A program made the translations under genes and the position numbers. This document shows, piece by piece, positions 9,009-27,246 of a stretch of DNA of 32,000 nucleotides. The notes under the pieces are model-generated. The model was given only the letters and a program-made list of their open reading frames with translations, was not told the origin of the DNA and ran no database searches. Each line of letters opens with the position of its first letter. The stretch's first letter is position 1. The DNA is from Promethearchaeum syntrophicum (GTDB taxonomy: Archaea; Asgardarchaeota; Lokiarchaeia; Sigyniarchaeales; Promethearchaeaceae), in the NCBI RefSeq assembly GCF_008000775.2, contig NZ_CP042905.2, positions 1,020,001-1,052,000 on the forward strand. Reading direction: 5' to 3'.

Positions 9009-10160
9009 ATGGTTGAAAAATGGTCTGCAGTAATACTCGCTGGTGGATTAGGTTCCCGATTAAACCCCCTAACTGCAAAAATTTGTAAACCAATGGTTCC
9101 AGTATGCAATAGACCAATGGTTGATTATGCAATTGACCATTTAAGATATGCTGGAATAAAAAAAATTATTATTGTAGTAAAGCATCTCGGAAATGAACTT
9201 CGTGACCTAATTAATTCAACTTGGACTAAAGAAATCTGTGAAAATTTGGGAATAGAAATATTAATTCCGAAGGTGAACTCAATGGGAACTGCAGATGCTG
9301 TTCGAAAAGTAGCAGATGAAATTACTTCAGAAAATTTCGTTGTATCTATGGCTGACATTGTTACAAATCTACCTATGACAAATTTTATGACCTATCATCT
9401 AAAAAAAAAAGCCCAAGCTACCGTTAGTATGAAAAGAATTGAAGAAATGGCTACAAAATACGGCAATACTCTCCTTGATAATGATGGAAAAATTATCCGA
9501 TTTTTAGAAAAACCTTCAAGTCAAGAAATTTATTTATCGGCATTAACAAGAAGAAATGCTCAAACTCTCCCTATAATTAACACCGGAATTTATTGTTTTA
9601 ATCGTGAAATATTAGATCTGATTAAAGAAACAACTTTCATGGATTTTGGAAAGGAAATATTCCCGTATCTACTCGAACATCAATATCGACTTTATGGCTT
9701 TGTTGATGATTATTATTGGTTAGATGTAGGTAATCCAACTACCTACTTATGGAGTAATTGGGATATTCTCAGACTATACGGATGGCCAATTACTCCGCCA
9801 GGCAGTCAAGAGGAGAAATTTAAATGGTTTCTGGAAAAACCGCCATCTCATCTAAAATATAATGAGAACATTTGCATTGGAAAGAATTGCACTTTTGGTC
9901 AAAATAATTATATCAGCAGTTTATCATCAATTGGTTCAAATTGTACTTTCGGTGTTAATGTGAAAGTAGACAAAAGCGTGATTTGGGATAATGTTAAGAT
10001 TGGAAATAATGTAATAATTGAACAAAGCGTTGTTGCAAATGGTTCTGTCATTGGAGATGATTGTGTTATCAAGAGCAACACTATTATTGGCCCTCACTCT
10101 AAAATTCGATCAAAAAGTGAATTAAACGCTAAAACACTTCAAGCTGACTCAAACATCTAG
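9009..10160 (+). CDS. Sugar-1-phosphate nucleotidylyltransferase (NDP-sugar pyrophosphorylase) with C-terminal left-handed beta-helix
   Basis: AVILAGGLGSRLNPLTAKICKPMVPVCNRPMVDYAIDHL matches the GGxGxRLxPLTxxxxKPxxP signature. The C-terminus has hexapeptide-like repeats (NCTFGQNNYISS..GSNCTFGVNVKVDKSVIWDNVKIGNNVIIEQSVVANGSVIGDDCVI). Confidence 0.8.
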   Translation: MVEKWSAVILAGGLGSRLNPLTAKICKPMVPVCNRPMVDYAIDHLRYAGIKKIIIVVKHLGNELRDLINSTWTKEICENLGIEILIPKVNSMGTADAVRKVADEITSENFVVSMADIVTNLPMTNFMTYHLKKKAQATVSMKRIEEMATKYGNTLLDNDGKIIRFLEKPSSQEIYLSALTRRNAQTLPIINTGIYCFNREILDLIKETTFMDFGKEIFPYLLEHQYRLYGFVDDYYWLDVGNPTTYLWSNWDILRLYGWPITPPGSQEEKFKWFLEKPPSHLKYNENICIGKNCTFGQNNYISSLSSIGSNCTFGVNVKVDKSVIWDNVKIGNNVIIEQSVVANGSVIGDDCVIKSNTIIGPHSKIRSKSELNAKTLQADSNI

Positions 10161-10331
10161 CTCGTTATTGTTTTTTTAATTACATTTTTACAATTATTTT
10201 TCGACATTTAATCTTAAAAATTCATCAATACAAATTTAAGCATTTAAAACCTAGTTAAACCATAAATACATTGTAAAAATAATTCAGCCAATTAAAACAC
10301 TATAAAAACGAAATAATTGTTGAGTATCCTT

Positions 10332-10880
10332 ATGTCTGGTCTTCGTGAATATATCTTCAAAATTGTAATTTTAGGTGATGGAAAAGTAGGTAAAACTTCC
10401 CTAGTATTACAATACACCGAGCATAAGTTCAACGAAAATTATATAATGTCTATTGGTGCAAATTTTGCAATAAAGATGGTCCATGTTAAAGATAATACTA
10501 TCATTCGACTTCAACTTTGGGATCTTGCTGGTCAACAACATTTTCAATTTGTGAGACCGAGTTTCTATCGTGGAGCTTTTGCTTCAATATTCGTTTTTGA
10601 TCTTACTCGAAGAGATTCTTTTAACAGTATTCGTAAATGGAAGGAAGAGTGTGATCAATATGTACCTGGAATTCCTCTTGTTCTAGTAGGGAATAAATCT
10701 GATTTAAATGATGAACGCGTTGTATCTCGAAGAGAAGGACAGGCACTTTCTTTGGAAATTGGCTCAGATTATTATTATGAAACTAGTGCTAAAACTGCGG
10801 ATAACATCGAAAAACTATTTTTAGATATCACTGATACTCTTATTGAAAAACATATAACGAATAGAAATTCAAAATCATGA
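10332..10880 (+). CDS. Eukaryote-like Rab/Ras-family small GTPase
   Basis: G1 is GDGKVGKTS, switch II/G3 is WDLAGQQHF, G4 is GNKSDL and G5 is ETSAK, in Rab-like spacing. There is no C-terminal Cys prenylation motif (the protein ends NRNSKS). The track start is TTG 10317; ATG 10332 gives MSGLREYIFKIVILGDG. Confidence 0.85.
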   Translation: MSGLREYIFKIVILGDGKVGKTSLVLQYTEHKFNENYIMSIGANFAIKMVHVKDNTIIRLQLWDLAGQQHFQFVRPSFYRGAFASIFVFDLTRRDSFNSIRKWKEECDQYVPGIPLVLVGNKSDLNDERVVSRREGQALSLEIGSDYYYETSAKTADNIEKLFLDITDTLIEKHITNRNSKS

Positions 10881-18801: not shown

Positions 18802-20241
18802 CTACCAAGGATGTTTTTTCCGCTTCTTCTTTCCTTGCATCATCTTTTGCTGCATTTCTGCCATTTCTTGCATATCAGGCATTTGGCCACCGTCTAATCC
18901 TGGAATACCACCCGCACCTGGTTGTCCTTTTTTACCACGGCGTTTCTTCCCTAAAATTCCCTTCATAAATACTTTCATTTGAGAATATTGTTTTAACATC
19001 TGTTTTATTTCCGTGTATGTTGTGCCGCTTCCCCTTGCAATTCTTGTAATTCGAGTTTTTCTTATAACATCTGGATTATCTTTCTCGAATTTAGTCATCG
19101 ATCCCAATACATAATCCCATTTATCTAAGTTAGCTTCGGCTAATACCTTAGCTTGTTCAGGGATATTCTGCCCTCCCATCATAGCTAATATTTTTGAAAA
19201 TCCGCCCATTTTATCAAGCGATTTAAGCTGAAGATGCATATCATCAAGCGTAAATTTACCTTTCATCATTCTCTTCATTTGGTCTTCGTCGGGTTCAAGT
19301 TCAAGCTCTTTTACTTTCTCGATTAATCCTTCGATATCAGGGATCCCCAACAATGTTCCGATAAATTTTGAAGCATGAAACTCTTCCAAATCATCAACTT
19401 TTTCTCCAACACCAATAAATTTGATAGGTGCTCCTGATGCGGCTGCTGCTGAAAGTGCTCCTCCCCCTTTTGCTGACCCATCCAATTTGGTTATAATAAT
19501 TGAACCAACATGTGTAGTCTGTGCAAAAGCAAGAGCTTGAGCATAAGCTTGTTGACCTAGTGTTCCATCAATTACCAAAATAGTCTCATTTGGTTTGATT
19601 ATATTTTCCAGTTTCTGCATCTCTTGCATTAATGCAGTTTCTTGCTTATGTCGACCTGCAGTATCCACAATGATAAGATCTTTTTGGTCTTTACCAGTTT
19701 TTATAAAATGTCTTAATCCTTTTTTAGCGATTTTTATGGCATTTTTCTCTTCAGGCATTCCAAAATGGCTCACTTTGATTGAATCACAGGTCTGGGCCAG
19801 CTGGTCGTATGCACCGGGTCGCCACGTGTCCGTACAGATAACTCCTATCTTGAAACCTTTTTTCTTATAAAAATTTGCGAGTTTTCCTATACTAGTTGTT
19901 TTTCCTGAACCTTGGATTCCAACTAAAAGAATTATTGATTGTTTGCCGGTTTTTATCCGTTTAGGAGCGTTATCTCCCCCAAGAATGTTTATTAACTCAT
20001 CATGCACAATTTTAATTATAAATTCTTTTCGTTCGATTTTTTTATTTATCTTTTGATCCATAGATCTCTTCTTTATATTTTCAGTCAATTGTAGACATAG
20101 CTCAACGTTCACATCGGCCATCAACAATGCCCTTTGTAACTCTAGTAGGATTCCGTTAATAGCATCTTTATCAATTTCGGGTAAGCGGCGTATTTTACGA
20201 ATGAGTGAATCAAGAGATTTTCCAAGATCGTTTAAAACCAT
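18802..20241 (-). CDS. srp54: Signal recognition particle protein SRP54
   Basis: It has an N domain, a G domain with [15 protein letters not shown] and TKLDG motifs, and a Met-rich M domain ([20 protein letters not shown]). Confidence 0.95.
20122..20241 (-). repeat. Resident copy (srp54 codons 1-40) of a diverged 120-nt direct repeat; partner at 22045-22164
   Basis: By-eye alignment gives 41 nt identical (20201-20241 vs 22124-22164) and about 20 mismatches over the full 120 nt. Homology starts exactly at the start codon and ends after codon 40. Confidence 0.85.
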
Positions 20242-20423
20242 TTTTACATGTGCTCTTCCTATTTTTTATTTAAATATTTCATTATTTTATTTTTTATATA
20301 TATATAGAAATGGATGAGATTTGAAGTTTTAGAGGATTTGCCATGATATAAGGCAAGAAATTTTTCAATTTAAAATTTTTTTTACCATTAGAACTAAAAC
20401 ACATTTTTTACAACTCTCTACAA

Positions 20424-21815
20424 CTATTTAAAAATTGATTCTCCCGAAAGCAGATTGAATTTAAGTCGTTGGTTGATTTTTTGAATAACAACATTTTCAC
20501 TTGGAAAATTCGATTCGAGCGCATTTCGATCTTCGATATTTGCCTCCCAAATTATTCGCTCGAGTTCATCATCGCTGATTGAATTGGGATCTGAAATGTA
20601 TTGTTGAATAAGTTCAGTAGTTGTTTTTTTGTAATAATTCATTATTTGGTCAATAATCTCCATATTATAGAATTGTCCAGTTTCCATTTCCCCAGTGTCT
20701 TCATCGATCCTTTCATAGGGTGTTAGGAATCTATTTATGAATTCATCAAATCGGGGTCCTAAGTCGAATCCTTTGTATTTTTTATATTGAAACATTAAGC
20801 AGAAGGTAAAATCATGGTTTAAATAGCATAAAGAACGAAGTGGGTTATTTTGGATCTCAATTCTGGTATTAATTTTAAGTTTTGAGGGAAAATACTTTAA
20901 GGATGTTAGATTGTTACCCATCAGATTTAATTTTTTAAGGTTTGGCAGTTCACGGGGTAAACCTTCTAAAGAAACCAATAAGTTTACTCCAAGAGCCATA
21001 TCTTCAAGAAGAGGAAGATATTTGGGAAAACCTCGTAGATTGCGAAGAGGGCAGCCTGTTACAGCGAATTTTTTTAATTTCGGCAATGATGAAGGAATTA
21101 ACTCTAAAGTCTGAATGAGGCAATTATGAATACCGAATCTTTCTAAAGAAGGTAATTTATTTGGAATCCCTCTTAGGGAATTAAGAGAACCTTTAAAAGA
21201 TGGAGGATATGAAGCGTTAATAATAAAAGTTTTTAACGAGGGGAGTTTCGCTGGTAGATCACTGATATCTGCTATTTGAGAATTACTAATGAATAAATTC
21301 TCAAGGTTTGGCAATAATTTCGGTAATCCTTTTAAATTTGATAGCGGAGCTCCTTTTTTAGTCGCTTTTTCATATTCTAGAGAGTCTTTTATGTAGTATA
21401 AATATGAAAATCCGTTAATAGATAGTTTCTTCAGATTTGGCAATTCTTTAGGTAATCCTTCTAATGATTTGATTTCATGGGAAATTATGCCCAAAATGGA
21501 AAGATTTGGTAAGTCTTGTGGTATTCCCTTAAGTGAATCAACAGAATAAGGGGGAAAATCAAACAAATTAATAATAACGAAATTAGGAAATTTTTCCTTA
21601 AATTCCTCTTTAGAAGTAAGACCTTTTCCAAACCTATATGGTTCGGGCTGAGAAAAAAGTTTATAAATTGCATCTTTTTTTTTTTTCATACAATAATGGA
21701 GAAAGATACCTGTTGTTGATTCATTAATTTCATCCCAAATATGGTTTAAATCTTTCTTTCGATAAACATTATTAATTTTATCCTTCTTGGATTCGATTGT
21801 CTTCAATTTAATCAT
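20424..21815 (-). CDS. Leucine-rich repeat protein with a unique N-terminal region and a shared 67-aa C-terminal module
   Basis: About 10 tandem LRR units of ~22-24 aa have the signature L.G(L/I)P..LPNL(K/E).L.I (e.g. SLEGLPKELPNLKKLSI, NLKGLPKLLPNLENLFI, SLEGLPRELPNLKKLNL). The C-terminus aligns to that of the 10919-11572 product. Confidence 0.8.
   Translation of the reverse strand: MIKLKTIESKKDKINNVYRKKDLNHIWDEINESTTGIFLHYCMKKKKDAIYKLFSQPEPYRFGKGLTSKEEFKEKFPNFVIINLFDFPPYSVDSLKGIPQDLPNLSILGIISHEIKSLEGLPKELPNLKKLSINGFSYLYYIKDSLEYEKATKKGAPLSNLKGLPKLLPNLENLFISNSQIADISDLPAKLPSLKTFIINASYPPSFKGSLNSLRGIPNKLPSLERFGIHNCLIQTLELIPSSLPKLKKFAVTGCPLRNLRGFPKYLPLLEDMALGVNLLVSLEGLPRELPNLKKLNLMGNNLTSLKYFPSKLKINTRIEIQNNPLRSLCYLNHDFTFCLMFQYKKYKGFDLGPRFDEFINRFLTPYERIDEDTGEMETGQFYNMEIIDQIMNYYKKTTTELIQQYISDPNSISDDELERIIWEANIEDRNALESNFPSENVVIQKINQRLKFNLLSGESIFK
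20811..21533 (-). repeat. Internal LRR-encoding tandem repeats
   Basis: Recurrent DNA units appear on the + strand, such as aggtttggcaataatttcggtaatcc, agatttggcaattctttaggtaatcc and aaggtttggcagttcacggggtaaacc. Coordinates are approximate, derived from aa ~95-335. Confidence 0.6.
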
Positions 21816-22044
21816 CGATTTTTCCTTTCTATTATAATTTTCGGGTTATTATTTTTAAATATTGACAGAGGTACTTTTTATTGATTAATACGATGGAATT
21901 CATAAAAAAAAGGGAAAAAATATTACCATGCGCATTAATAATTGGGAAACTCGTTCAAATATTCCTCGATATGGGTTTCTAAATCGAATCCAGCTGGAAG
22001 TCCCAACTGAGCATATATTGATACGGATTGCATGGAGGGAGGAT

Positions 22045-22164
22045 CAAAAGCGCTCTTTGTAATTCTTGTAAAACCGCGCTAATAGAATCTTTATCAATTT
22101 CGGGCAATCTTCGTATTTTACGGATGAGTGAATCAAGAGATTTTCCAAGATCGTTTAAAACCAT
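22045..22164 (-). pseudogene. Orphan 5' fragment of an srp54 allele (codons 1-40 only)
   Basis: The track ORF 21979-22164 begins [40 protein letters not shown]. Real SRP54 begins [40 protein letters not shown]. After codon 40 it reads unrelated sequence and stops at codon 61. Confidence 0.85.
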
Positions 22165-22213
22165 ATTCTCAATAATTCCAATTCAACGACATTCAAAAAT
22201 TTTATTTAAAATC

Positions 22214-22987
22214 TTATTCTTCCAAATTATCTGTTCTTGATGAATAAAATCCCAGAAAGAAAAAACTGATAACTAAGGTAAATAAAATCCATGAAATCAG
22301 ATTGTAGACTGTCCTCCCTTCTACTGTTTGGAGATCTATCACCATAAATATTAACATTATCAACATAAAAACACAACCTAAAGCTAAAGCATAGGCTCTC
22401 CGAACAAAATTGATTATTTTTGTATCCGAATATTCAATTGAACCTATTTTTTTTAATTTTTTTGCTGTTAAAATCATGTTGAAAAATAAATATATGTAAG
22501 ATACAAAATGCAAAATATATAAAATGAAAACTCCAATATAGCCAAAATATTTTGATTCTACTTCTACTATTTCTTCATTTACTGCAAAAATTATATATGA
22601 TAAAATAAGGGACCCAATGAAGCCAAGAAATACATAGATTGCAACAAATGTTTTGAATCTCTTTGACTTTACATAATCTTCAGAGGAAAAAAGTTCTAAA
22701 CTAAAATAAAATAATGCAATATTCCCTAAAATAGAAAAAAATAACTCTGCTCCAACGAAAACATTATTTGCTTGAGGAAACACTTGATTCAAAATTGCTA
22801 ATCCTGGAAAGAAAAAATAACACAAGAAATAATATGAGATATATTTTGAAGATAATTTCTTCTCTTTTTGGTAATAAATATAAGCAATAACAACATAAAT
22901 TATTGAGAGAGCTGCTCCTAAAATTTTTAGAATATATCTTGAAATCTCAAAAATTTCTGGACTTAATTGCATTTCCATGAATTTCAC
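22214..22987 (-). CDS. Seven-TM integral membrane protein, function unknown
   Basis: About seven hydrophobic segments of 20-27 aa, rich in aromatic residues, are separated by short loops. No soluble domain is recognisable. Confidence 0.6.
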   Translation of the reverse strand: MKFMEMQLSPEIFEISRYILKILGAALSIIYVVIAYIYYQKEKKLSSKYISYYFLCYFFFPGLAILNQVFPQANNVFVGAELFFSILGNIALFYFSLELFSSEDYVKSKRFKTFVAIYVFLGFIGSLILSYIIFAVNEEIVEVESKYFGYIGVFILYILHFVSYIYLFFNMILTAKKLKKIGSIEYSDTKIINFVRRAYALALGCVFMLIMLIFMVIDLQTVEGRTVYNLISWILFTLVISFFFLGFYSSRTDNLEE

Positions 22988-23058
22988 TTTTCATTTTTTT
23001 ATATGATTATTACTCATTTTTTATTTGGTGCTACTCATTATTAAGTACTTAATCTTAT

Positions 23059-23502
23059 TTATAATATCGATTTATATTCTTGGGCTTGGAGAAATGATTT
23101 GATTTTTTGTTCTAATTGATGCTCCTGAGTTGCTAGTAGATAATTTTTAGTCCAAATTCCCGAAGTACCACTTTTAATGGGGGATAAATGTTGTAAAAAT
23201 CTTCTTGAACTAACCGATTTTAGATTACTGATAAATTTCGTTAATTTCATCAAATCCTTTTTAGTTTTTTTTTCCCCATAAACTGATAAATCTGTTTGCG
23301 ATTTCGCTTCAAATATAATTTCAATGTGTTTTTTTTCTAAATAAACGGAGATCAATTTAACATCATCATCATTCTTCTCAAGATTAAAATAATTTGTAAT
23401 AATATCTTCCATTTTATCTTTTAATTCTTTAGTTGTAAATAAGGATTTATCTCCTTTTGTGCAAAATATACATTCATACCTAAGAAACTCAATTAATTTC
23501 AT
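23059..23502 (-). CDS. Divergent IS200/IS605 TnpA-like (Y1/HUH-fold) protein, paralog 2; HUH replaced by H-I-E
   Basis: It is a paralog of the upstream gene (shared VKLISVY...H.EI.F.A block). LRYECIFCTKGDKSLF parallels YHIVWCPKYRRKVL. KKHIEIIF sits at the DHIHIL position. LKSVSSRRFLQHL parallels KGRSSRILRQEF. IWTKNYLLAT parallels LWTNSCFIST. KSFLQAQ parallels QYIENQ, with Phe at the catalytic Tyr position. Comparison was made by eye against remembered IS608 TnpA. Confidence 0.45.
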   Translation of the reverse strand: MKLIEFLRYECIFCTKGDKSLFTTKELKDKMEDIITNYFNLEKNDDDVKLISVYLEKKHIEIIFEAKSQTDLSVYGEKKTKKDLMKLTKFISNLKSVSSRRFLQHLSPIKSGTSGIWTKNYLLATQEHQLEQKIKSFLQAQEYKSIL

Positions 23503-23525
23503 AATTTAAATTCCTACTTGTCTAT

Positions 23526-24017
23526 TTAAAATTTCTCAATCGTGCTGATTGTTTTTTGAAGATTTAGATACGCTTCTAACTGTTGTTTTACTATTTGTCT
23601 TCGAGAACTTAAGAATATATTCTCATTCCAAAGACTATCCCCCAAAAGAAGAAGAATTTCCTTCAGCTTTGGAACATCTTTTTTTGCTTCCTCTAAAATA
23701 TACTCTGCTGAATGATTATACAAATCTTTTATAAATTGTTTTAAGTTGAAGACTGGTAGAGCTTGAAAATTGATTTCTACATGATCATTGTGTACATATA
23801 CTGAAATTAACTTTACATTCTTCTTTTTTTCATTTTTTTCATAAAAAAAATCATAGATCCCTGCCTGAATAATCTCTTTCATTTGTTCATTAATTAAAAT
23901 TTCCTTAAATTTACGAATAGTGAAAACAAGGATATACCTTAACAACGTAATGGATCTATTATTTCTATCCATTATTTCTATTTTCAAATAATTTTTCAAT
24001 TCAGATCTATAGTACAT
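23526..24017 (-). CDS. Divergent IS200/IS605 TnpA-like (Y1/HUH-fold) protein, paralog 1; HUH replaced by H-V-E
   Basis: It is collinear and nearly ungapped against IS608 TnpA. RYILVFTIRKFKEIL parallels YHIVWCPKYRRKVL. VKLISVYVHNDHVEINFQALPVFNLKQFIKDLYNHSAEYIL parallels VEIIEMQTDKDHIHILADIDPSFGVMKFIKTAKGRSSRIL. LWNENIFLSS parallels LWTNSCFIST. EAYLNLQ parallels KQYIENQ, with Tyr retained. An internal ATG at codon 16 is an alternative start. Confidence 0.55.
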   Translation of the reverse strand: MYYRSELKNYLKIEIMDRNNRSITLLRYILVFTIRKFKEILINEQMKEIIQAGIYDFFYEKNEKKKNVKLISVYVHNDHVEINFQALPVFNLKQFIKDLYNHSAEYILEEAKKDVPKLKEILLLLGDSLWNENIFLSSRRQIVKQQLEAYLNLQKTISTIEKF

Positions 24018-24309
24018 TTCGCAATTCTGCTATAAAAAAATTACCAAAATAAATTGCATTACTGCAGCGAAAAATACGGAGGTCATTTTAAATTTTTTTA
24101 AATGTAGTGTATAATATTAATTAAAAACGCTATAAAATAAAGATGGAGAAAATGAGGGACTAAAAAAATGGAGCTTTCACCATAGCTTTAAATATTTTAT
24201 ACACGAAGAAAATATTAAGAGAGGAAAAAAAAAGACAATTTTATTTTTTCTCAAGAAAATCCCAAAAGGCAAAATTTTATCCCCTACATCCAAAAAGACA
24301 AAATAATTC

Positions 24310-25014
24310 CTATAAAACCTTTTTATCTATCAAGTTCGGAAATTTTAGAGGGATTTCCGAAATATCATTAATAATGTAATCCGCTTTTACTTTTTGAAAG
24401 AGTTCAAAGGTTCCCGCTCCACTTAGAACTCCAACCGTAATAATCCCCGCTTTTTTTCCTGCTAAAATATCTTTGGGAGAATCTCCAAAAATCATAATAT
24501 TTTGTGGTGAAAAACCCCATTTGTGTAATAATTTCATTACTCCTTCTGGATGGGGTTTCTTATGTTTTACATCATCTTTTGAAATTATATTCCCTTCAAA
24601 ATAATTCAAGATGTCTTCCCTGCCATCAAAAATTGATTTTATCTCATTGCGACTTGCATTCGTAAACATACCGATTTTAACATTATTTATCTTTAAAAAT
24701 TCTAAAGTCTCTTGAGTTCCATCTATTAATGGACATTTCTGAACAAATTCATATAGCACATTTCTCGCTTGGAACATCATTTTTATCCGTCTAAAAAAAT
24801 TAAGGTTCATTTTTTTTCCTAGAAACATCATAACTTCATACCTTTCGATAGCTGAGCCAGTTATAGAGAGAGGGATGCCAACCTTTTCTCGAAAAAGAGC
24901 ATCTAATTCATCAGTTAAAGGAAAATTATAATCCTCTGCTATTTTTCTATGAATATTTATAATGAATGGAACATCGTCTATAATCGTTCCGTCTAAATCG
25001 AATATAACGCCCAT
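24310..25014 (-). CDS. HAD-superfamily phosphatase (phosphoglycolate phosphatase/PGMB-like subfamily)
   Basis: Motif I follows directly after the ATG at 25012-25014 (MGVIFDLDGTIIDD). The remaining HAD motifs (TNAS; K..KP.PEG; GDSPKDILAGKKAG) follow in order. The track uses TTG 25053, adding 13 aa; the ATG start places DxDGT at the usual N-terminal position. Confidence 0.8.
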   Translation of the reverse strand: MGVIFDLDGTIIDDVPFIINIHRKIAEDYNFPLTDELDALFREKVGIPLSITGSAIERYEVMMFLGKKMNLNFFRRIKMMFQARNVLYEFVQKCPLIDGTQETLEFLKINNVKIGMFTNASRNEIKSIFDGREDILNYFEGNIISKDDVKHKKPHPEGVMKLLHKWGFSPQNIMIFGDSPKDILAGKKAGIITVGVLSGAGTFELFQKVKADYIINDISEIPLKFPNLIDKKVL

Positions 25015-25138
25015 TTCTTTTTTTATGTTACCCACTATACATTTAAATGACAAAATAGTATTAAAATGAATTGGTAGAGATATAGTGCTGACATGCTAAA
25101 TACCGAATTGGGCGTATGAAACTTAAGATTTGAATTTT
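24921..25138. repeat. Copy A of a ~220-bp diverged direct repeat (HAD codons 1-~32 plus ~124 nt upstream)
   Basis: It aligns by eye with 26861-27081. The distal 71 nt (25068-25138 vs 27011-27081) have 7 mismatches. The coding part is about three-quarters identical, with one in-frame 3-nt indel. Confidence 0.85.
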
Positions 25139-25504
25139 GATTTATTTAAAAAATAAAAAGAAAAAGAAATGATGATAAAGAATGATACAAAAATAATAAA
25201 AGAATTTCAAGATGATTTGGTCTTTTATAGATTTGGTTTATTTAATTTTATTAATTCGTATTCTGGGTTGTTTAATTTATATTTGAATCTCCAATTGATA
25301 AAGGAATGGAAATTTGAGTAATTATTGAATAAAATATGCAAGTTCTATTTCAAACAATATATATATAATCAATTTATAATTTTTAGGGAACATAATTAAA
25401 TATTTTAAGTGAATCAATTAATATTGTGGAGGAAATGAATAATTAGAGTAAAAATTGTTAAAATCCATAGAGTTTTATCATGGTTCTTAGTTCTTTTTTC
25501 AATT

Positions 25505-26827
25505 TTGACAATTTTTACTGGATATATAATAGCAAGAAAATGGTTTCTTATTGAGAATATCTATATTTTATCCACCCTACATAAAATTTTCGAGTGGTTT
25601 TTCTTAATCCTTCTGATTTTCCATCTGATTTTAACTTCAAAGTATTTTTCCATCAATTGGGCAAAAGAGATTCATGGTATGAGAAATTCAAGGAATCGAA
25701 AAATTCACCAATTGAGGATTCTACAGAGAATCACTAGTTGGTTGATTCTGATTAGTGTATCGCTTGTTGTATTGACTGGATTGCACAACTATCAATGGTT
25801 TTCGTTAACTCTCGGACAATTTTTTCTGTTTAAATATCATTCAGTAGTAGATGGATTTCTAACAATTTTTATACTCATTCACTCGGGATTGGGAGCAATT
25901 AAAGCAATAGAACGTAAGAAAGAGAAATTCGATAGAAATAATATTTATGTATATATGATAATGTTCTTATTGATTGGAGGGACCGTCTATTTGGAAGTTT
26001 TTCCTTATATCCTAGGAAACGATTCTATTTCCCAAAATCCTTCGAATATTTTAGAAAGTGAATCCATTGTAATAGGAGATCAAGTTTTTAATTTCAATCC
26101 TCTTGAAATACAAACGATCCGGGAAGATCTGTTTAAAAATGGTTCGTTTTCTGTATTTGATATATTGGTCTATCTTGACAATTTAGGTCAACTCGATTTG
26201 GATTACCATTTCAATGGAACGTTGAACACTTATGTTATTGACAATTTGGAACAACAAAATTTATGGTGGTATAAAATAAAATATTCAGGAGGTTGGGATG
26301 AGAAAAATGTTTTTCGAATGGATCATTATCCATGGAAGGTAGGATCATCTGTGACCCTTCAACCCGCTTCTAAATCTACACTAGATCAAATTTATGCTAC
26401 GTACCTTGAAGAAAATGAACGTTTGGTTTCAAACAATGGAACAGTCATCATTCCCAAAGTTGAAATTAATGGAAGAACAATAAACTATAATTTCTATAAC
26501 GTCACAATAAATCCACACAATTTACGTAATGATACATTCCAAGAGGGGGTAATAACTGCTATTGATATCATTATGAGTTTGGTTGATCAGGGATTAATAA
26601 GCTCTTATAATCTACAATGGTATGATGAAATAGGTACTGCTGAATTTGTTAGGAGTTATTGGGTTGAAGGGATAGAAAACGATAATGCTTACGGAACTTG
26701 TGGTTTTGTTTATGAATCGGGAGATACTGATTTTCCATTCTTTGATGGAAATCATATTCATCTTCCTTCGGATACTCGTATCTTGAATAATCCGGAATAC
26801 TCCAGATGGTTCTGGATATGTCTTTAG
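25505..26827 (+). CDS. Membrane protein: N-terminal 4-5 TM His-containing bundle (cytochrome-b/DUF4405-like, tentative) plus a ~270-aa extracytoplasmic domain of unknown function
   Basis: The TM helices carry conserved-looking His residues (LILLIFHLILT, VVLTGLHNYQ, KYHSVVDGFLTIFILIHSGLG). The C-terminal domain is rich in N/Y/W (NLWWYKIKYSGGWDEKNVFRMDHYPWKVG). The start is TTG, and the reading frame stays open 66 nt further upstream (from 25439) without an ATG/GTG/TTG. Confidence 0.6.
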   Translation: MTIFTGYIIARKWFLIENIYILSTLHKIFEWFFLILLIFHLILTSKYFSINWAKEIHGMRNSRNRKIHQLRILQRITSWLILISVSLVVLTGLHNYQWFSLTLGQFFLFKYHSVVDGFLTIFILIHSGLGAIKAIERKKEKFDRNNIYVYMIMFLLIGGTVYLEVFPYILGNDSISQNPSNILESESIVIGDQVFNFNPLEIQTIREDLFKNGSFSVFDILVYLDNLGQLDLDYHFNGTLNTYVIDNLEQQNLWWYKIKYSGGWDEKNVFRMDHYPWKVGSSVTLQPASKSTLDQIYATYLEENERLVSNNGTVIIPKVEINGRTINYNFYNVTINPHNLRNDTFQEGVITAIDIIMSLVDQGLISSYNLQWYDEIGTAEFVRSYWVEGIENDNAYGTCGFVYESGDTDFPFFDGNHIHLPSDTRILNNPEYSRWFWICL

Positions 26828-26956: not shown

Positions 26957-27081
26957 TTTTTTTTTTTTATTTCACCCATTAAACACTTAGATGACAAAAT
27001 TAATTTAAATAAATTGGTAGAGATATAATGCTGACATGCAAAATACCGATTTGAGTGTATCAAACTTAAGATTTGAATTTT
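26861..27081. repeat. Copy B of the ~220-bp diverged direct repeat (partner 24921-25138)
   Basis: See copy A. The T-run is expanded to T13 (26956-26968) relative to copy A. Confidence 0.85.
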
Positions 27082-27246
27082 AAATTCTGTTTTGATACAT
27101 TGAAATCAAATTATGGATAAGATATTCTTTTTTATTTTATTCATTTAAAATTCGACGACTAAACATCATTAAAATTCAAAAAATTCATAATATCTAATAA
27201 CATATATTTATAGTAAAAACATTTTAACAAAGAATAAGTGATAATT

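Follow-up and report, generated by a model that had tools for sequence, protein, structure and literature searches.

A 32-kb stretch of DNA from Promethearchaeum syntrophicum, hereafter the window, carries on its minus strand a locus descended from an IS200/IS605-type Y1 transposase that has been domesticated and has lost its mobility. The locus consists of two Y1 genes, Y1a and Y1b, followed by a gene for a seven-helix membrane protein (7TM). The best overall explanation of the evidence is that the two Y1 proteins work as a heterodimer in a module together with the 7TM protein and an upstream 16-nt DNA element (DR1), and we regard this as somewhat more likely than not. No description of the Y1a/Y1b pair or of a Y1-7TM module was found in the literature searched, nor any mention of the DSAG12 locus tags, and the module is apparently undescribed.

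Gene arrangement and fold of the Y1 pair

The maximal open reading frame of Y1a covers positions 23526-24017 of the minus strand and encodes 163 aa; residue numbers given here follow this frame. Translation probably starts at M16, as in the NCBI annotation, since the extension upstream of M16 is out of frame in orthologs, and the probable gene is thus 23526..23972, with its ATG at 23972 and a product of 148 aa. Y1b (23059..23502, minus strand, 147 aa) lies 23 nt further on, and a gap of 71 nt separates it from the maximal frame of the 7TM gene (22214-22987, minus strand, 257 aa), whose start is probably at 22978, giving a gene at 22214..22978 and a protein of 254 aa. The coordinates and gaps in the initial annotation were accurate. 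Two recombination-stub junctions had also been reported near the locus, and both duplicated junctions were found. The direct repeats of the window border neighbouring insertions rather than the trio itself. As first noted, a TnpB or IscB gene is absent from the entire 32-kb window and IS-type ends are absent from the flanks: we found neither subterminal hairpins or palindromes flanking the Y1 genes nor terminal hairpins or repeats around the whole trio. Y1a is 100% identical to a P. syntrophicum protein named “transposase”, and NCBI gives this name to both Y1a and Y1b. In PADLOC neither the three proteins of the trio nor the two inserted genes matched an anti-phage defence model, and a reading of the locus as a defence system was dropped.

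Both Y1a and Y1b have the IS200/IS605 TnpA fold. That they are paralogs, as proposed from a shared block of residues, is supported by BLASTP (28% identity, E 1e-11) and by profile-profile comparison (E 3.7e-17, probability 98.9%). Both score above the cutoff of 23 bits for Pfam family PF01797 (Y1_Tnp), with 33.6 bits (E 4.8e-8) for Y1a and 47.2 bits (E 2.9e-12) for Y1b, and the family profiles match the TnpA structures of ISDra2 and IS608 with E-values of 7e-5 and 1e-6. An AF2 model of Y1a (mean pLDDT 74.5) was compared with the PDB using Foldseek; all of the 29 best matches were IS200/IS605 TnpA, the top one being 2xm3 (E 8.5e-9). Profile and structure searches thus clearly recover the Y1/HUH fold suspected at the outset. 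The scores against the NCBIfam equivalog for IS200 (NF033573) are 42.5 and 36.9 bits, below its cutoff of 55. Family alignments of the two paralogs contain 34 and 31 invariant columns.

The two proteins resemble TnpA of IS608 and ISDra2 (subclass 1.1, PMC6006769) in fold, length and core-only architecture, in the beta1 motif, the W motif and the Y-x-x-x-Q helix, and in being matched best by these structures in the PDB. They differ in that their clade has H-x-E or Y-x-E in place of HUH, that one paralog has Phe in place of the catalytic Tyr, and that the genes are single-copy and syntenic, lack hairpins and TnpB, and fall below the equivalog cutoff. Subclass 1.1 is the only Y1 subclass seen in Archaea (Quentin et al. 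2018, PMC6006769). The same survey reported archaea with ordinary IS200 copies only, and discarded proteins lacking HUH or Tyr as non-functional (PMC6006769).

Conservation of the trio and its linkage to the 7TM gene

Homologs of the two paralogs form 16 and 23 clusters, all from Promethearchaeota or metagenomes and each present on one to a few contigs. The gene order aIF5A, HAD, Y1a, Y1b, 7TM, SRP54 recurs in all of the longer contigs, with L001 lacking a called SRP54, and the trio is single-copy at the same position in every related contig examined. A scan of GTDB genomes added two loci, both from Promethearchaeum sp., and a metagenome scan recovered one. Orthologs at 50–72% identity are all intact and unchanged in position in every contig, and synonymous divergence (dS) is saturated between Promethearchaeum-type genomes that share this position. 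Where dS is unsaturated, dN/dS is 0.14 for Y1a, 0.17–0.19 for Y1b and about 0.2 for the 7TM gene, compared with 0.23–0.27 for the neighbouring HAD gene. In these contigs the trio thus occurs once, keeps its synteny and evolves under purifying selection. Relative to its flanks, the Y1 pair of L013 has apparently been swapped as a cassette. An ordinary multi-copy insertion sequence had been named as the outcome to check for; homologs were never found in one, being either single-copy at the same position or adjoining a 7TM homolog.

More distant relatives, with Y1 proteins about 30% identical and other neighbours, carry one or two Y1-like genes together with a 7TM homolog, which may come before or after them. 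The 7TM homolog adjoins Y1-like genes in L015 (hhalign probability 94%), L016/L017 (E 7e-20), L021 (E 2e-22) and L023 (E 1.5e-48), and lies upstream of them in L022 (E 5e-11) and L024 (E 3.5e-7). These loci have a GC content of 32–45% and unrelated flanking genes. Linkage of Y1 and 7TM genes is therefore maintained in distant lineages, whichever gene comes first. The adjacency to a 7-TM gene, earlier described as an odd partnership for a transposase, proves to be better conserved than anything else in the system. The module is made up of one or two HUH-degenerate proteins of the TnpA fold and a 7-TM protein of about 250 aa, to which two or more distant lineages add an upstream 16-nt motif.

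The 7TM protein family has no sequence match in Pfam, NCBIfam or the PDB, and none of its 25 homologs has a Pfam domain. The family was found only where Y1-like genes occur. Its AF2 model (mean pLDDT 83.7) consists of seven long helices, predicted from loop charges and the positive-inside rule to be oriented N-out and C-in, and the cytoplasmic loops are conserved. The predicted topology and the long helices are shared with GPCRs and microbial rhodopsins, which also give the best Foldseek matches, but these matches are only to generic GPCR/rhodopsin-like bundles (TM-score 0.5–0.6, rmsd about 6 Å), a generic similarity of bundle topology. Unlike those proteins, the 7TM protein belongs to no recognised family and lacks the retinal Lys in TM7.

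Upstream of Y1a lies the near-invariant 16-nt element DR1, ATTTTGTCTTTTTGGA (24289..24304, minus strand). All positions (16/16) agree between the window, seven loci of Promethearchaeum type and the distant L016/L017, this last being the one distant lineage in which it could be checked because the remaining distant contigs are too short; L001/L002 have one mismatch. No further zero-mismatch copy of DR1 occurs in the window or the 24 loci (157 kb of sequence). A second direct copy, DR2 (ATTTTGCCTTTTGGGA; 24260..24275, minus strand), is located 29 nt downstream of DR1. L016 likewise has a second copy, 32 nt from the first, and L014 lacks DR2. The repeated 16-mer is direct and non-palindromic, and within the 32-kb window it is confined to this locus.

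A conserved TATA-like element, TATTTAAAGCT (24184..24194, minus strand; reverse complement AGCTTTAAATA, so that either orientation can be read), is identical in L016, L023 and the Promethearchaeum loci, apart from a single mismatch in L013. Its spacing from DR1 is 110 nt both in the window and in L016. Closer to the genes, some 58 nt ahead of the ATG of M16, we read from the sequence a proximal TATA-like box, TTTTTTTATAG (24030..24040, minus strand), which is conserved in the alignment and probably serves as promoter for Y1a, Y1b and the 7TM gene as one unit. A structured RNA in the conserved upstream block was considered and dropped: there was no Rfam match and no consensus fold on either strand, and single-sequence folding gave z-scores of 0.44 and 0.16. 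Nor did this block contain a conserved small ORF.

Active-site residues and complementary loss

Alignment to IS608 and ISDra2 places the HUH position at H79-V-E81 in Y1a and H59-I-E61 in Y1b, and the catalytic Tyr and Gln at Y150/Q154 in Y1a and F137/Q141 in Y1b. This confirms the initial assignment, namely Glu for the second His in both proteins and Tyr in Y1a where Y1b has Phe. The H-x-E motif ascribed to both holds for the proteins of the window, but does not extend to Y1a elsewhere, as its orthologs mostly have Y-V-E or H-V-K. Over 20 Y1a orthologs the first HUH position is Y in 13 and H in 7, and the second E in 14 and K in 6; Y150 and Q154 are conserved in 20/20. In the 22 Y1b clusters, H59 and F137 are each found in 21, E61 in 19 and Q141 in 17. 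The exceptions at E61 are K (2/22) and G (1/22), the G lineage being L001/L002, which is still under purifying selection. Residues K95, S96, V97, S99 and R100 of Y1b are invariant and belong to a canonical K-S-V-S-S-R helix.

No member of the clade has the second His of HUH, and most single-gene forms have Tyr in place of the first; their usual motif is Y-V-E, otherwise Y-I-E or H-I-E. The canonical HUH motif had been lost in the clade before duplication. In a neighbour-joining tree of 134 columns the Y1 pair of L023 is nested with the single-gene form of L016 (bootstrap 100) and hence represents an independent duplication, so that the Y1 gene has been tandem-duplicated independently at least two times. 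One copy of the L023 pair has Y-V-E and lacks helix alphaD, whereas the other has S-V-A and keeps Y..Q. Judged by these residues, the two independent duplications show the same complementary loss, one copy keeping the strand motif and losing the Tyr helix, the other keeping Tyr and Gln. Related variants are the L019-type Y1b orthologs, in which alphaD is wholly absent, and the fused two-domain relatives P0080 and P0083. The L022 pair has lost the His/Glu pattern from both copies (H-I-R and N-V-G), the single-gene form of L021 has Phe at the Tyr position, and in the L003 contig, where the 7TM frame is split, both subunits lack Glu. In most Y1a orthologs the ancestral Y-V-E persists alongside Y..Q, and a site in cis, or one in a Y1a homodimer, is consequently possible.

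Proposed working, alternatives and known relatives

The dimer of IS200/IS605 TnpA, with its trans-assembled active sites, is the template for our model. We consider it slightly better than an even bet that Y1a pairs with Y1b in an obligate, asymmetric heterodimer resembling IS608 TnpA, with a single pocket assembled in trans. Y1b would contribute the strand motif H59-x-E61 and the K-S-V-S-S-R helix, and Y1a Tyr150 and Gln154 on helix alphaD, while the reciprocal pocket would be dead. IS200/IS605 TnpA is a homodimer, whereas here two different subunits, linked to a 7TM gene, are proposed. Transposition needs two sites and should therefore be beyond such a heterodimer, which could at most bind a single nucleic-acid site or else cleave it and religate it. 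The complementary conservation of residues, together with the same loss after an independent second duplication, lends indirect support to a single composite site. More tentatively, and with the balance somewhat against it, the heterodimer may be the cytoplasmic partner of the 7TM protein. It would dock on the conserved cytoplasmic loops, such as D-Y-x-K-S after TM3 and I-E-Y-S-D between TM5 and TM6, its nucleic-acid target would be ATTTTGTCTTTTTGGA upstream of its own operon, and the module would couple a membrane event to binding or nicking of DNA at that element. DR1 could also be bound by an unrelated regulator. An extended form of this proposal, an archaeal and probably Asgard-centred membrane-to-DNA module in which a one-pocket HUH-fold dimer is the cytoplasmic effector of a GPCR-like 7-TM protein and either binds the 16-nt element sequence-specifically or nicks it reversibly, is speculative and rather unlikely to be right in full.

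An alternative that we rate unlikely, but a little less so than that extended proposal, is a single-site ssDNA nickase or relaxase-like enzyme. Its activity would be localised or gated by the 7TM protein, perhaps so that DNA is transferred or processed at the membrane. Tyr150 of Y1a would attack a specific ssDNA site with a metal held by His59 and Glu61 of Y1b and Gln154 of Y1a, giving a reversible 5'-phosphotyrosine link without strand transfer. The near-complete conservation of these four residues and the complementary loss in two independent duplications fit this chemistry. Some HUH enzymes, such as AAV Rep, use Glu as a metal ligand. In addition, an engineered two-gene operon producing a heterodimer of IS608 TnpA H64A and Y127F, with one trans-active site, cleaves robustly without strand transfer (He et al. 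2013, PMC3597680). Against a nickase, the second His is gone throughout the clade and most single-gene forms have Tyr for the first, Glu61 is replaced by K or G in lineages under purifying selection, the single-gene module of L021 has Phe for Tyr, and no hairpin substrate was seen near the genes. As the two-His metal site is lost clade-wide and some lineages can dispense with the Glu that is left, we lean towards binding over canonical metal-dependent cleavage, and on these residue patterns a non-catalytic binding role is at least as likely as a nickase.

It is improbable that the linkage is adjacency without shared function, with the 7TM gene merely co-transcribed and Y1a/Y1b binding nucleic acid elsewhere, for instance regulating genuine IS200/IS605 copies or binding hairpins at replication forks. 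The gene downstream in L019 is not a 7TM homolog and P0080 has no 7TM neighbour, but elsewhere the linkage survives inversion of gene order (L022, L024) and full turnover of neighbours in at least six lineages, and the 7TM family is confined to the company of Y1-like genes. An active, unusual mobile element with a heterodimeric transposase and 7TM cargo would explain the varied genomic contexts, in which L016, L024 and the Promethearchaeum loci have neighbours unrelated to one another. The contig of the fused P0080, which also carries ParA, ParB and Rep_O-like genes, and the apparent cassette-like exchange in L013 speak for it as well. It is nevertheless very improbable: the trio is single-copy and fixed in position across Promethearchaeum-type genomes with saturated dS, terminal hairpins or repeats are absent, the direct repeats of the window flank neighbouring insertions instead, and a one-site dimer is incapable of strand transfer (PMC3597680). 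The degenerate HUH motif and the loss of one catalytic Tyr, the sub-threshold NCBIfam scores and the “transposase” labels could point to a decayed IS200/IS605 remnant, with two dying tnpA copies lying by chance beside a membrane-protein gene. This has almost no probability left, being in effect refuted by synteny and by dN/dS values equal to or below that of the HAD gene; the intact orthologs, the invariant columns and the 7TM linkage kept in distant lineages also speak against it.

The engineered TnpA(H64A)-TnpA(Y127F) heterodimer resembles Y1a/Y1b in being encoded by a two-gene operon with one strand-defective subunit and one Tyr-to-Phe subunit. It differs in being artificial, otherwise wild-type and supplied with natural hairpin substrates, whereas even the better-preserved strand motif of the natural pair is H-x-E and not H-x-H. 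Complementary decay after two duplications amounts to a natural experiment on the trans active site of TnpA, previously probed by engineered mutants only.

Domestication of IS200-type Y1 proteins has so far been described for the bacterial RAYTs. These act as monomers with a site in cis. Like Y1a/Y1b, RAYTs (TnpA_REP; PMC5581495, PMC8266576) are single-copy, vertically inherited, housekeeping-like relatives of Y1 transposases with a short DNA repeat near the gene. They are bacterial, keep HUH and Tyr, and are flanked by many-copy palindromic REP hairpins, whereas the motifs of Y1a/Y1b are degenerate and accompanied by a direct, non-palindromic 16-mer and a 7TM partner. Foldseek matched the RAYT structure 4er8 with an E-value of 5e-3, compared with 1e-8 for IS200-type TnpA. 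Membership of the RAYTs was rejected on the absence of REPs, the weak structural match and the degenerate motifs.

The present locus shows that in Archaea, too, degenerate Y1 proteins can be host genes that selection conserves alongside a constant partner, and its occurrence in a cultured Asgard archaeon makes it open to experiment. A small 7-TM protein with conserved cytoplasmic loops is of interest for how the prokaryotes most closely related to eukaryotes signal at their membranes and, if the membrane-to-DNA reading is true, a domesticated IS200/IS605 transposase would have given rise to a new kind of signalling or DNA-processing system. Many of the best 150 profile matches have non-HUH triplets, an indication that repurposed Y1-fold proteins are numerous and largely unexplored.

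Domestication of the Y1 pair

The three genes are all encoded on the minus strand: Y1a at 23526-24017 (maximal ORF, 163 aa), Y1b at 23059-23502 (147 aa) and the gene for the seven-helix membrane protein, 7TM, at 22214-22987 (257 aa at most). The intergenic gaps are 23 nt between Y1a and Y1b and 71 nt between Y1b and 7TM, and positions and spacing are those of the initial annotation. NCBI annotates M16 as the start of Y1a. Alignment of the upstream regions agrees with this, since the frame of the N-terminal extension before M16 is not preserved in orthologs. Both Y1 proteins match annotated "transposase" proteins of Promethearchaeum syntrophicum at 100%, which identifies the window as DNA of this organism. 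A gene for a small Ras/Roc-family GTPase, typical of Asgard genomes, is located at 10317-10880 (Pfam Ras, E 7.6e-50).

The proposed paralogy of Y1a and Y1b was upheld by BLASTP (28% identity, E 1e-11) and by comparison of their family profiles (E 3.7e-17). Both proteins score above the gathering threshold of Pfam PF01797 Y1_Tnp (Y1a E 4.8e-8, Y1b E 2.9e-12), and with 42.5 and 36.9 bits the two stay below the 55-bit cutoff of the NCBIfam IS200 equivalog. Their family profiles match the solved TnpA structures of ISDra2 and IS608. Furthermore, the 29 best PDB matches of the Y1a AF2 model (mean pLDDT 74.5) were IS200/IS605 TnpA chains only (E 8.5e-9 to 3e-6), the RAYT structure 4er8 reaching merely E 5e-3. 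The TnpA-like fold suggested from the sequence was thus recovered by Pfam, profile and structure searches alike. Y1a and Y1b are descendants of IS200/IS605 TnpA, with a predicted TnpA-like way of working.

An insertion sequence, or the decaying remnant of one, was ruled out by the fixed gene order, the low dN/dS and the small number of homolog clusters. Among 5.8 billion proteins Y1a has only 16 such clusters and Y1b 23; their members come without exception from Promethearchaeota or metagenomes, and a given cluster is represented on one to a few contigs. The order aIF5A (divergent), HAD hydrolase, Y1a, Y1b, membrane protein of ~250 aa, SRP54 is identical on every contig of sufficient length, except that SRP54 was not called in L001, and it is the same in two Promethearchaeum species genomes from GTDB. 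CDC48, FEN1, NAD kinase and further housekeeping genes surround the block. Between orthologs with unsaturated dS (0.5-0.8), dN/dS was 0.14 for Y1a, 0.17-0.19 for Y1b and about 0.2 for 7TM, with 0.23-0.27 for the adjoining HAD gene, which marks Y1a, Y1b and 7TM as selected host genes. As initially noted, TnpB and IscB genes are absent from the 32-kb window and IS ends are lacking, the flanks of the Y1 genes holding no hairpins above AT-rich noise. Very probably the pair is a domesticated one that no longer moves, is under selection and has a stable link to the 7TM gene.

Phylogenetic discordance was seen inside one Promethearchaeum sp. MAG contig (L013, 1041-3802). Its Y1a and Y1b share most with their L001-type counterparts (aa identities 76% and 68%), and the flanking HAD and 7TM are nearest L008 (80% and 83%). 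Either the Y1 pair was swapped as a cassette of co-adapted genes, or different strains were joined in a chimeric contig.

Active-site residues and repeated duplication

In the ISDra2 and IS608 alignments the HUH (His-hydrophobic-His) column holds H79-V-E81 in Y1a and H59-I-E61 in Y1b, and the catalytic Tyr and Gln columns hold Y150/Q154 and F137/Q141, the same H-x-E and Tyr versus Phe assignment as was first read from the sequence. Among 20 Y1a proteins position 1 of the triplet is Y in 13 and H in 7, and position 3 is E in 14 and K in 6; Y150 and Q154 are invariant. Among 22 Y1b proteins H59 is kept in 21 and E61 in 19 (K in two, G in one), with Phe in 21/22 and Gln in 17/22. The canonical K-S-V-S-S-R helix is invariant in Y1b and diverged in Y1a. 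Distant loci with a single Y1-like gene carry Y-I-E (L015), Y-V-E (L016, L018) or Y-L-R (L024), each with Y..Q, or H-I-E with F..Q (L021). The motif states of all these forms indicate that the canonical two-His site was gone before duplication.

In a neighbour-joining tree (100 bootstraps) the two genes of locus L019 come out as orthologs of Y1a and Y1b (bootstrap 100 and 93), and the Y1b-type proteins of this locus (108-120 aa) lack the whole of alphaD, the C-terminal helix with the catalytic Tyr and Gln. The L023 pair is nested with the single-gene L016 form (bootstrap 100), so that its duplication was independent of that of Y1a/Y1b. One L023 copy has Y-V-E without alphaD, the other S-V-A with Y..Q. 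Two independent duplications therefore show the same split, the strand motif being kept in one copy and the Tyr helix in the other. This is expected if the two cooperate across a subunit interface, the pattern of trans-assembled sites known from IS608 TnpA, and if a dimer needs no more than one pocket of this kind. An asymmetric Y1a/Y1b heterodimer with a single composite trans pocket is a reading we lean towards, by a small measure. Its design would be mirrored in an engineered IS608 TnpA heterodimer (H64A + Y127F), expressed from an artificial two-gene operon, in which one trans site gives robust cleavage and strand transfer is impossible (PMC3597680).

Fused proteins with two degenerate Y1-like domains per polypeptide also occur (P0080, 364 aa; P0083, 344 aa), as does P0075 (248 aa) with the same two-domain content. 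The 47.7-kb contig of P0080 carries ParA, ParB, Peptidase_S24 and Phage_rep_O-like genes and is therefore probably a plasmid or virus; a 7TM neighbour is absent there. Among the best 150 matches of a joint Y1a/Y1b profile (P0065-P0213), many are short metagenomic Y1_Tnp-like proteins that are non-HUH (Y-V-H, Y-V-Y, H-V-E, H-V-Q, N-V-x) and/or have Tyr replaced by Phe. This suggests that Y1-fold proteins which have been repurposed or act as heterodimers form a large and still unexplored pool.

Membrane partner and upstream DNA element

The 254-aa 7TM protein has no sequence match in Pfam, NCBIfam, PADLOC or PDB. Its AF2 model has seven long helices (mean pLDDT 83.7), predicted from loop charges to be N-out, C-in. 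Foldseek returned only generic GPCR/rhodopsin-like bundles (TM-score 0.5-0.6, rmsd about 6 A), a resemblance that is not taken as homology.

The joint profile, run against 1.84 billion representative proteins, gave only 345 matches at E <= 1e-3, of which 26 reached E <= 1e-10. All ORFs around the closest matches, and at one locus from a metagenome scan, were scored with HMMs. A 7TM homolog lies downstream of a single Y1-like gene in L015 (hhalign 94%), L016/L017 (E 7e-20) and L021 (E 2e-22) and downstream of two in L023 (E 1.5e-48); it lies upstream of two in L022 (E 5e-11) and of one in L024 (E 3.5e-7). In L019 the gene that follows the pair had no 7TM homology detectable by HMM scoring. GC content is 32-45% in the distant loci with the linkage (L015-L017, L021-L024), whose flanking genes are unrelated, among them HEAT-repeat, acyl-CoA dehydrogenase, pyruvate:ferredoxin oxidoreductase and THUMP genes. 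That the linkage outlasts turnover of all other neighbours and inversion of the order is strong evidence that Y1-like and 7TM genes form a functional module. The partnership with the membrane protein is the conserved core of the system, and the pair and its membrane-protein neighbour, whose conservation the initial annotation had proposed to survey, keep one order in all judgeable contigs of the Y1a and Y1b clusters. Distant 7TM proteins share D-Y-x-[KR] after TM3, an Asp ending TM6 and R-T...[GS]-W in TM7.

A block located between Y1a and the stop codon of HAD (about 24130-24310, minus strand) is near-invariant in orthologous loci despite saturated synonymous sites. It contains DR1, ATTTTGTCTTTTTGGA (24289-24304), a second copy of it, DR2 (24260-24275), 29 nt downstream, a TATA-like box TATTTAAAGCT (24184-24194) and TCCCTCATTTT (24149-24159). 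In L016/L017, where Y1 protein identity is down to about 30% and another gene, divergently oriented, lies upstream, the DR1 16-mer is identical (16/16), another copy follows 32 nt downstream, and the TATTTAAAGCT box and the 110-nt DR1-to-TATA spacing are shared with the window (L016, 5687-5807). Elsewhere in the window and 24 loci (157 kb in total) DR1 was not found at zero mismatches. Among the distant contigs, those of L016/L017 were long enough to be checked for the motif, and that of L023 begins at the TATA-like box. No Rfam match, conserved small ORF or, on either strand, consensus or significant fold was found in the block. The orientation of TATTTAAAGCT is ambiguous, its reverse complement AGCTTTAAATA being a textbook archaeal TATA box pointing away from Y1a. 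We read the block as a cis-acting DNA site, an operator or target, with the Y1 proteins as its putative binders; the conserved element belongs to the Y1-7TM module.

Three observations speak against retained chemistry: the change of Glu to K or G in lineages where purifying selection persists, the Phe at the Tyr position of the single-gene L021 module and the H-I-R and N-V-G triplets of the L022 pair. Canonical metal-dependent nicking by itself appears unlikely. Binding to the upstream element, coupled to 7TM, or at most reversible nicking there, is a possibility that we put forward tentatively. As an outside possibility, the locus could be a membrane-to-DNA module of a new kind.

Known systems and neighbouring insertions

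Y1a and Y1b lack HUH, IS ends and mobility, the defining properties of IS200/IS605 TnpA. Their lifestyle resembles that of RAYTs, but they have an archaeal, IS200-type core, a different motif state and no REP palindromes and, unlike RAYTs, are a predicted heterodimeric pair with a membrane partner. In a 2018 census of TnpA-Y1 proteins the archaeal representatives were all ordinary IS200-type copies, and sequences in which HUH or Tyr was missing were set aside because they were probably non-functional (PMC6006769). Our literature search returned no paper describing the Y1a/Y1b pair or the Y1-7TM module. We regard the locus as a variant form of domesticated Y1 transposase.

Two insertions with one gene apiece, each about 1.9 kb long, are bounded by direct repeats in which the 5' end of a host gene is duplicated; the repeats are imperfect (79-88% identical) and about 125-130 nt in length. 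On the SRP54 side (20120-20244 and 22043-22167) an LRR protein gene (20424-21815) lies between SRP54 and a stub that repeats the first 26 SRP54 codons. On the HAD side (25014-25143 and 26958-27086) a gene for 440 aa (25505-26827), the N-terminus of which is weakly cytochrome b561-like, lies between HAD and a stub of the HAD 5' region. No integrase lies between the repeats, and both insertions are missing from orthologous loci. The region next to SRP54 varies in other genomes as well: a 458-aa gene without Pfam match follows SRP54 immediately in L014 (10429-11805), and in L001 the expected place of SRP54 is taken by 1.5 kb in which no gene was called (9273-10790). This region may be an insertion hotspot.
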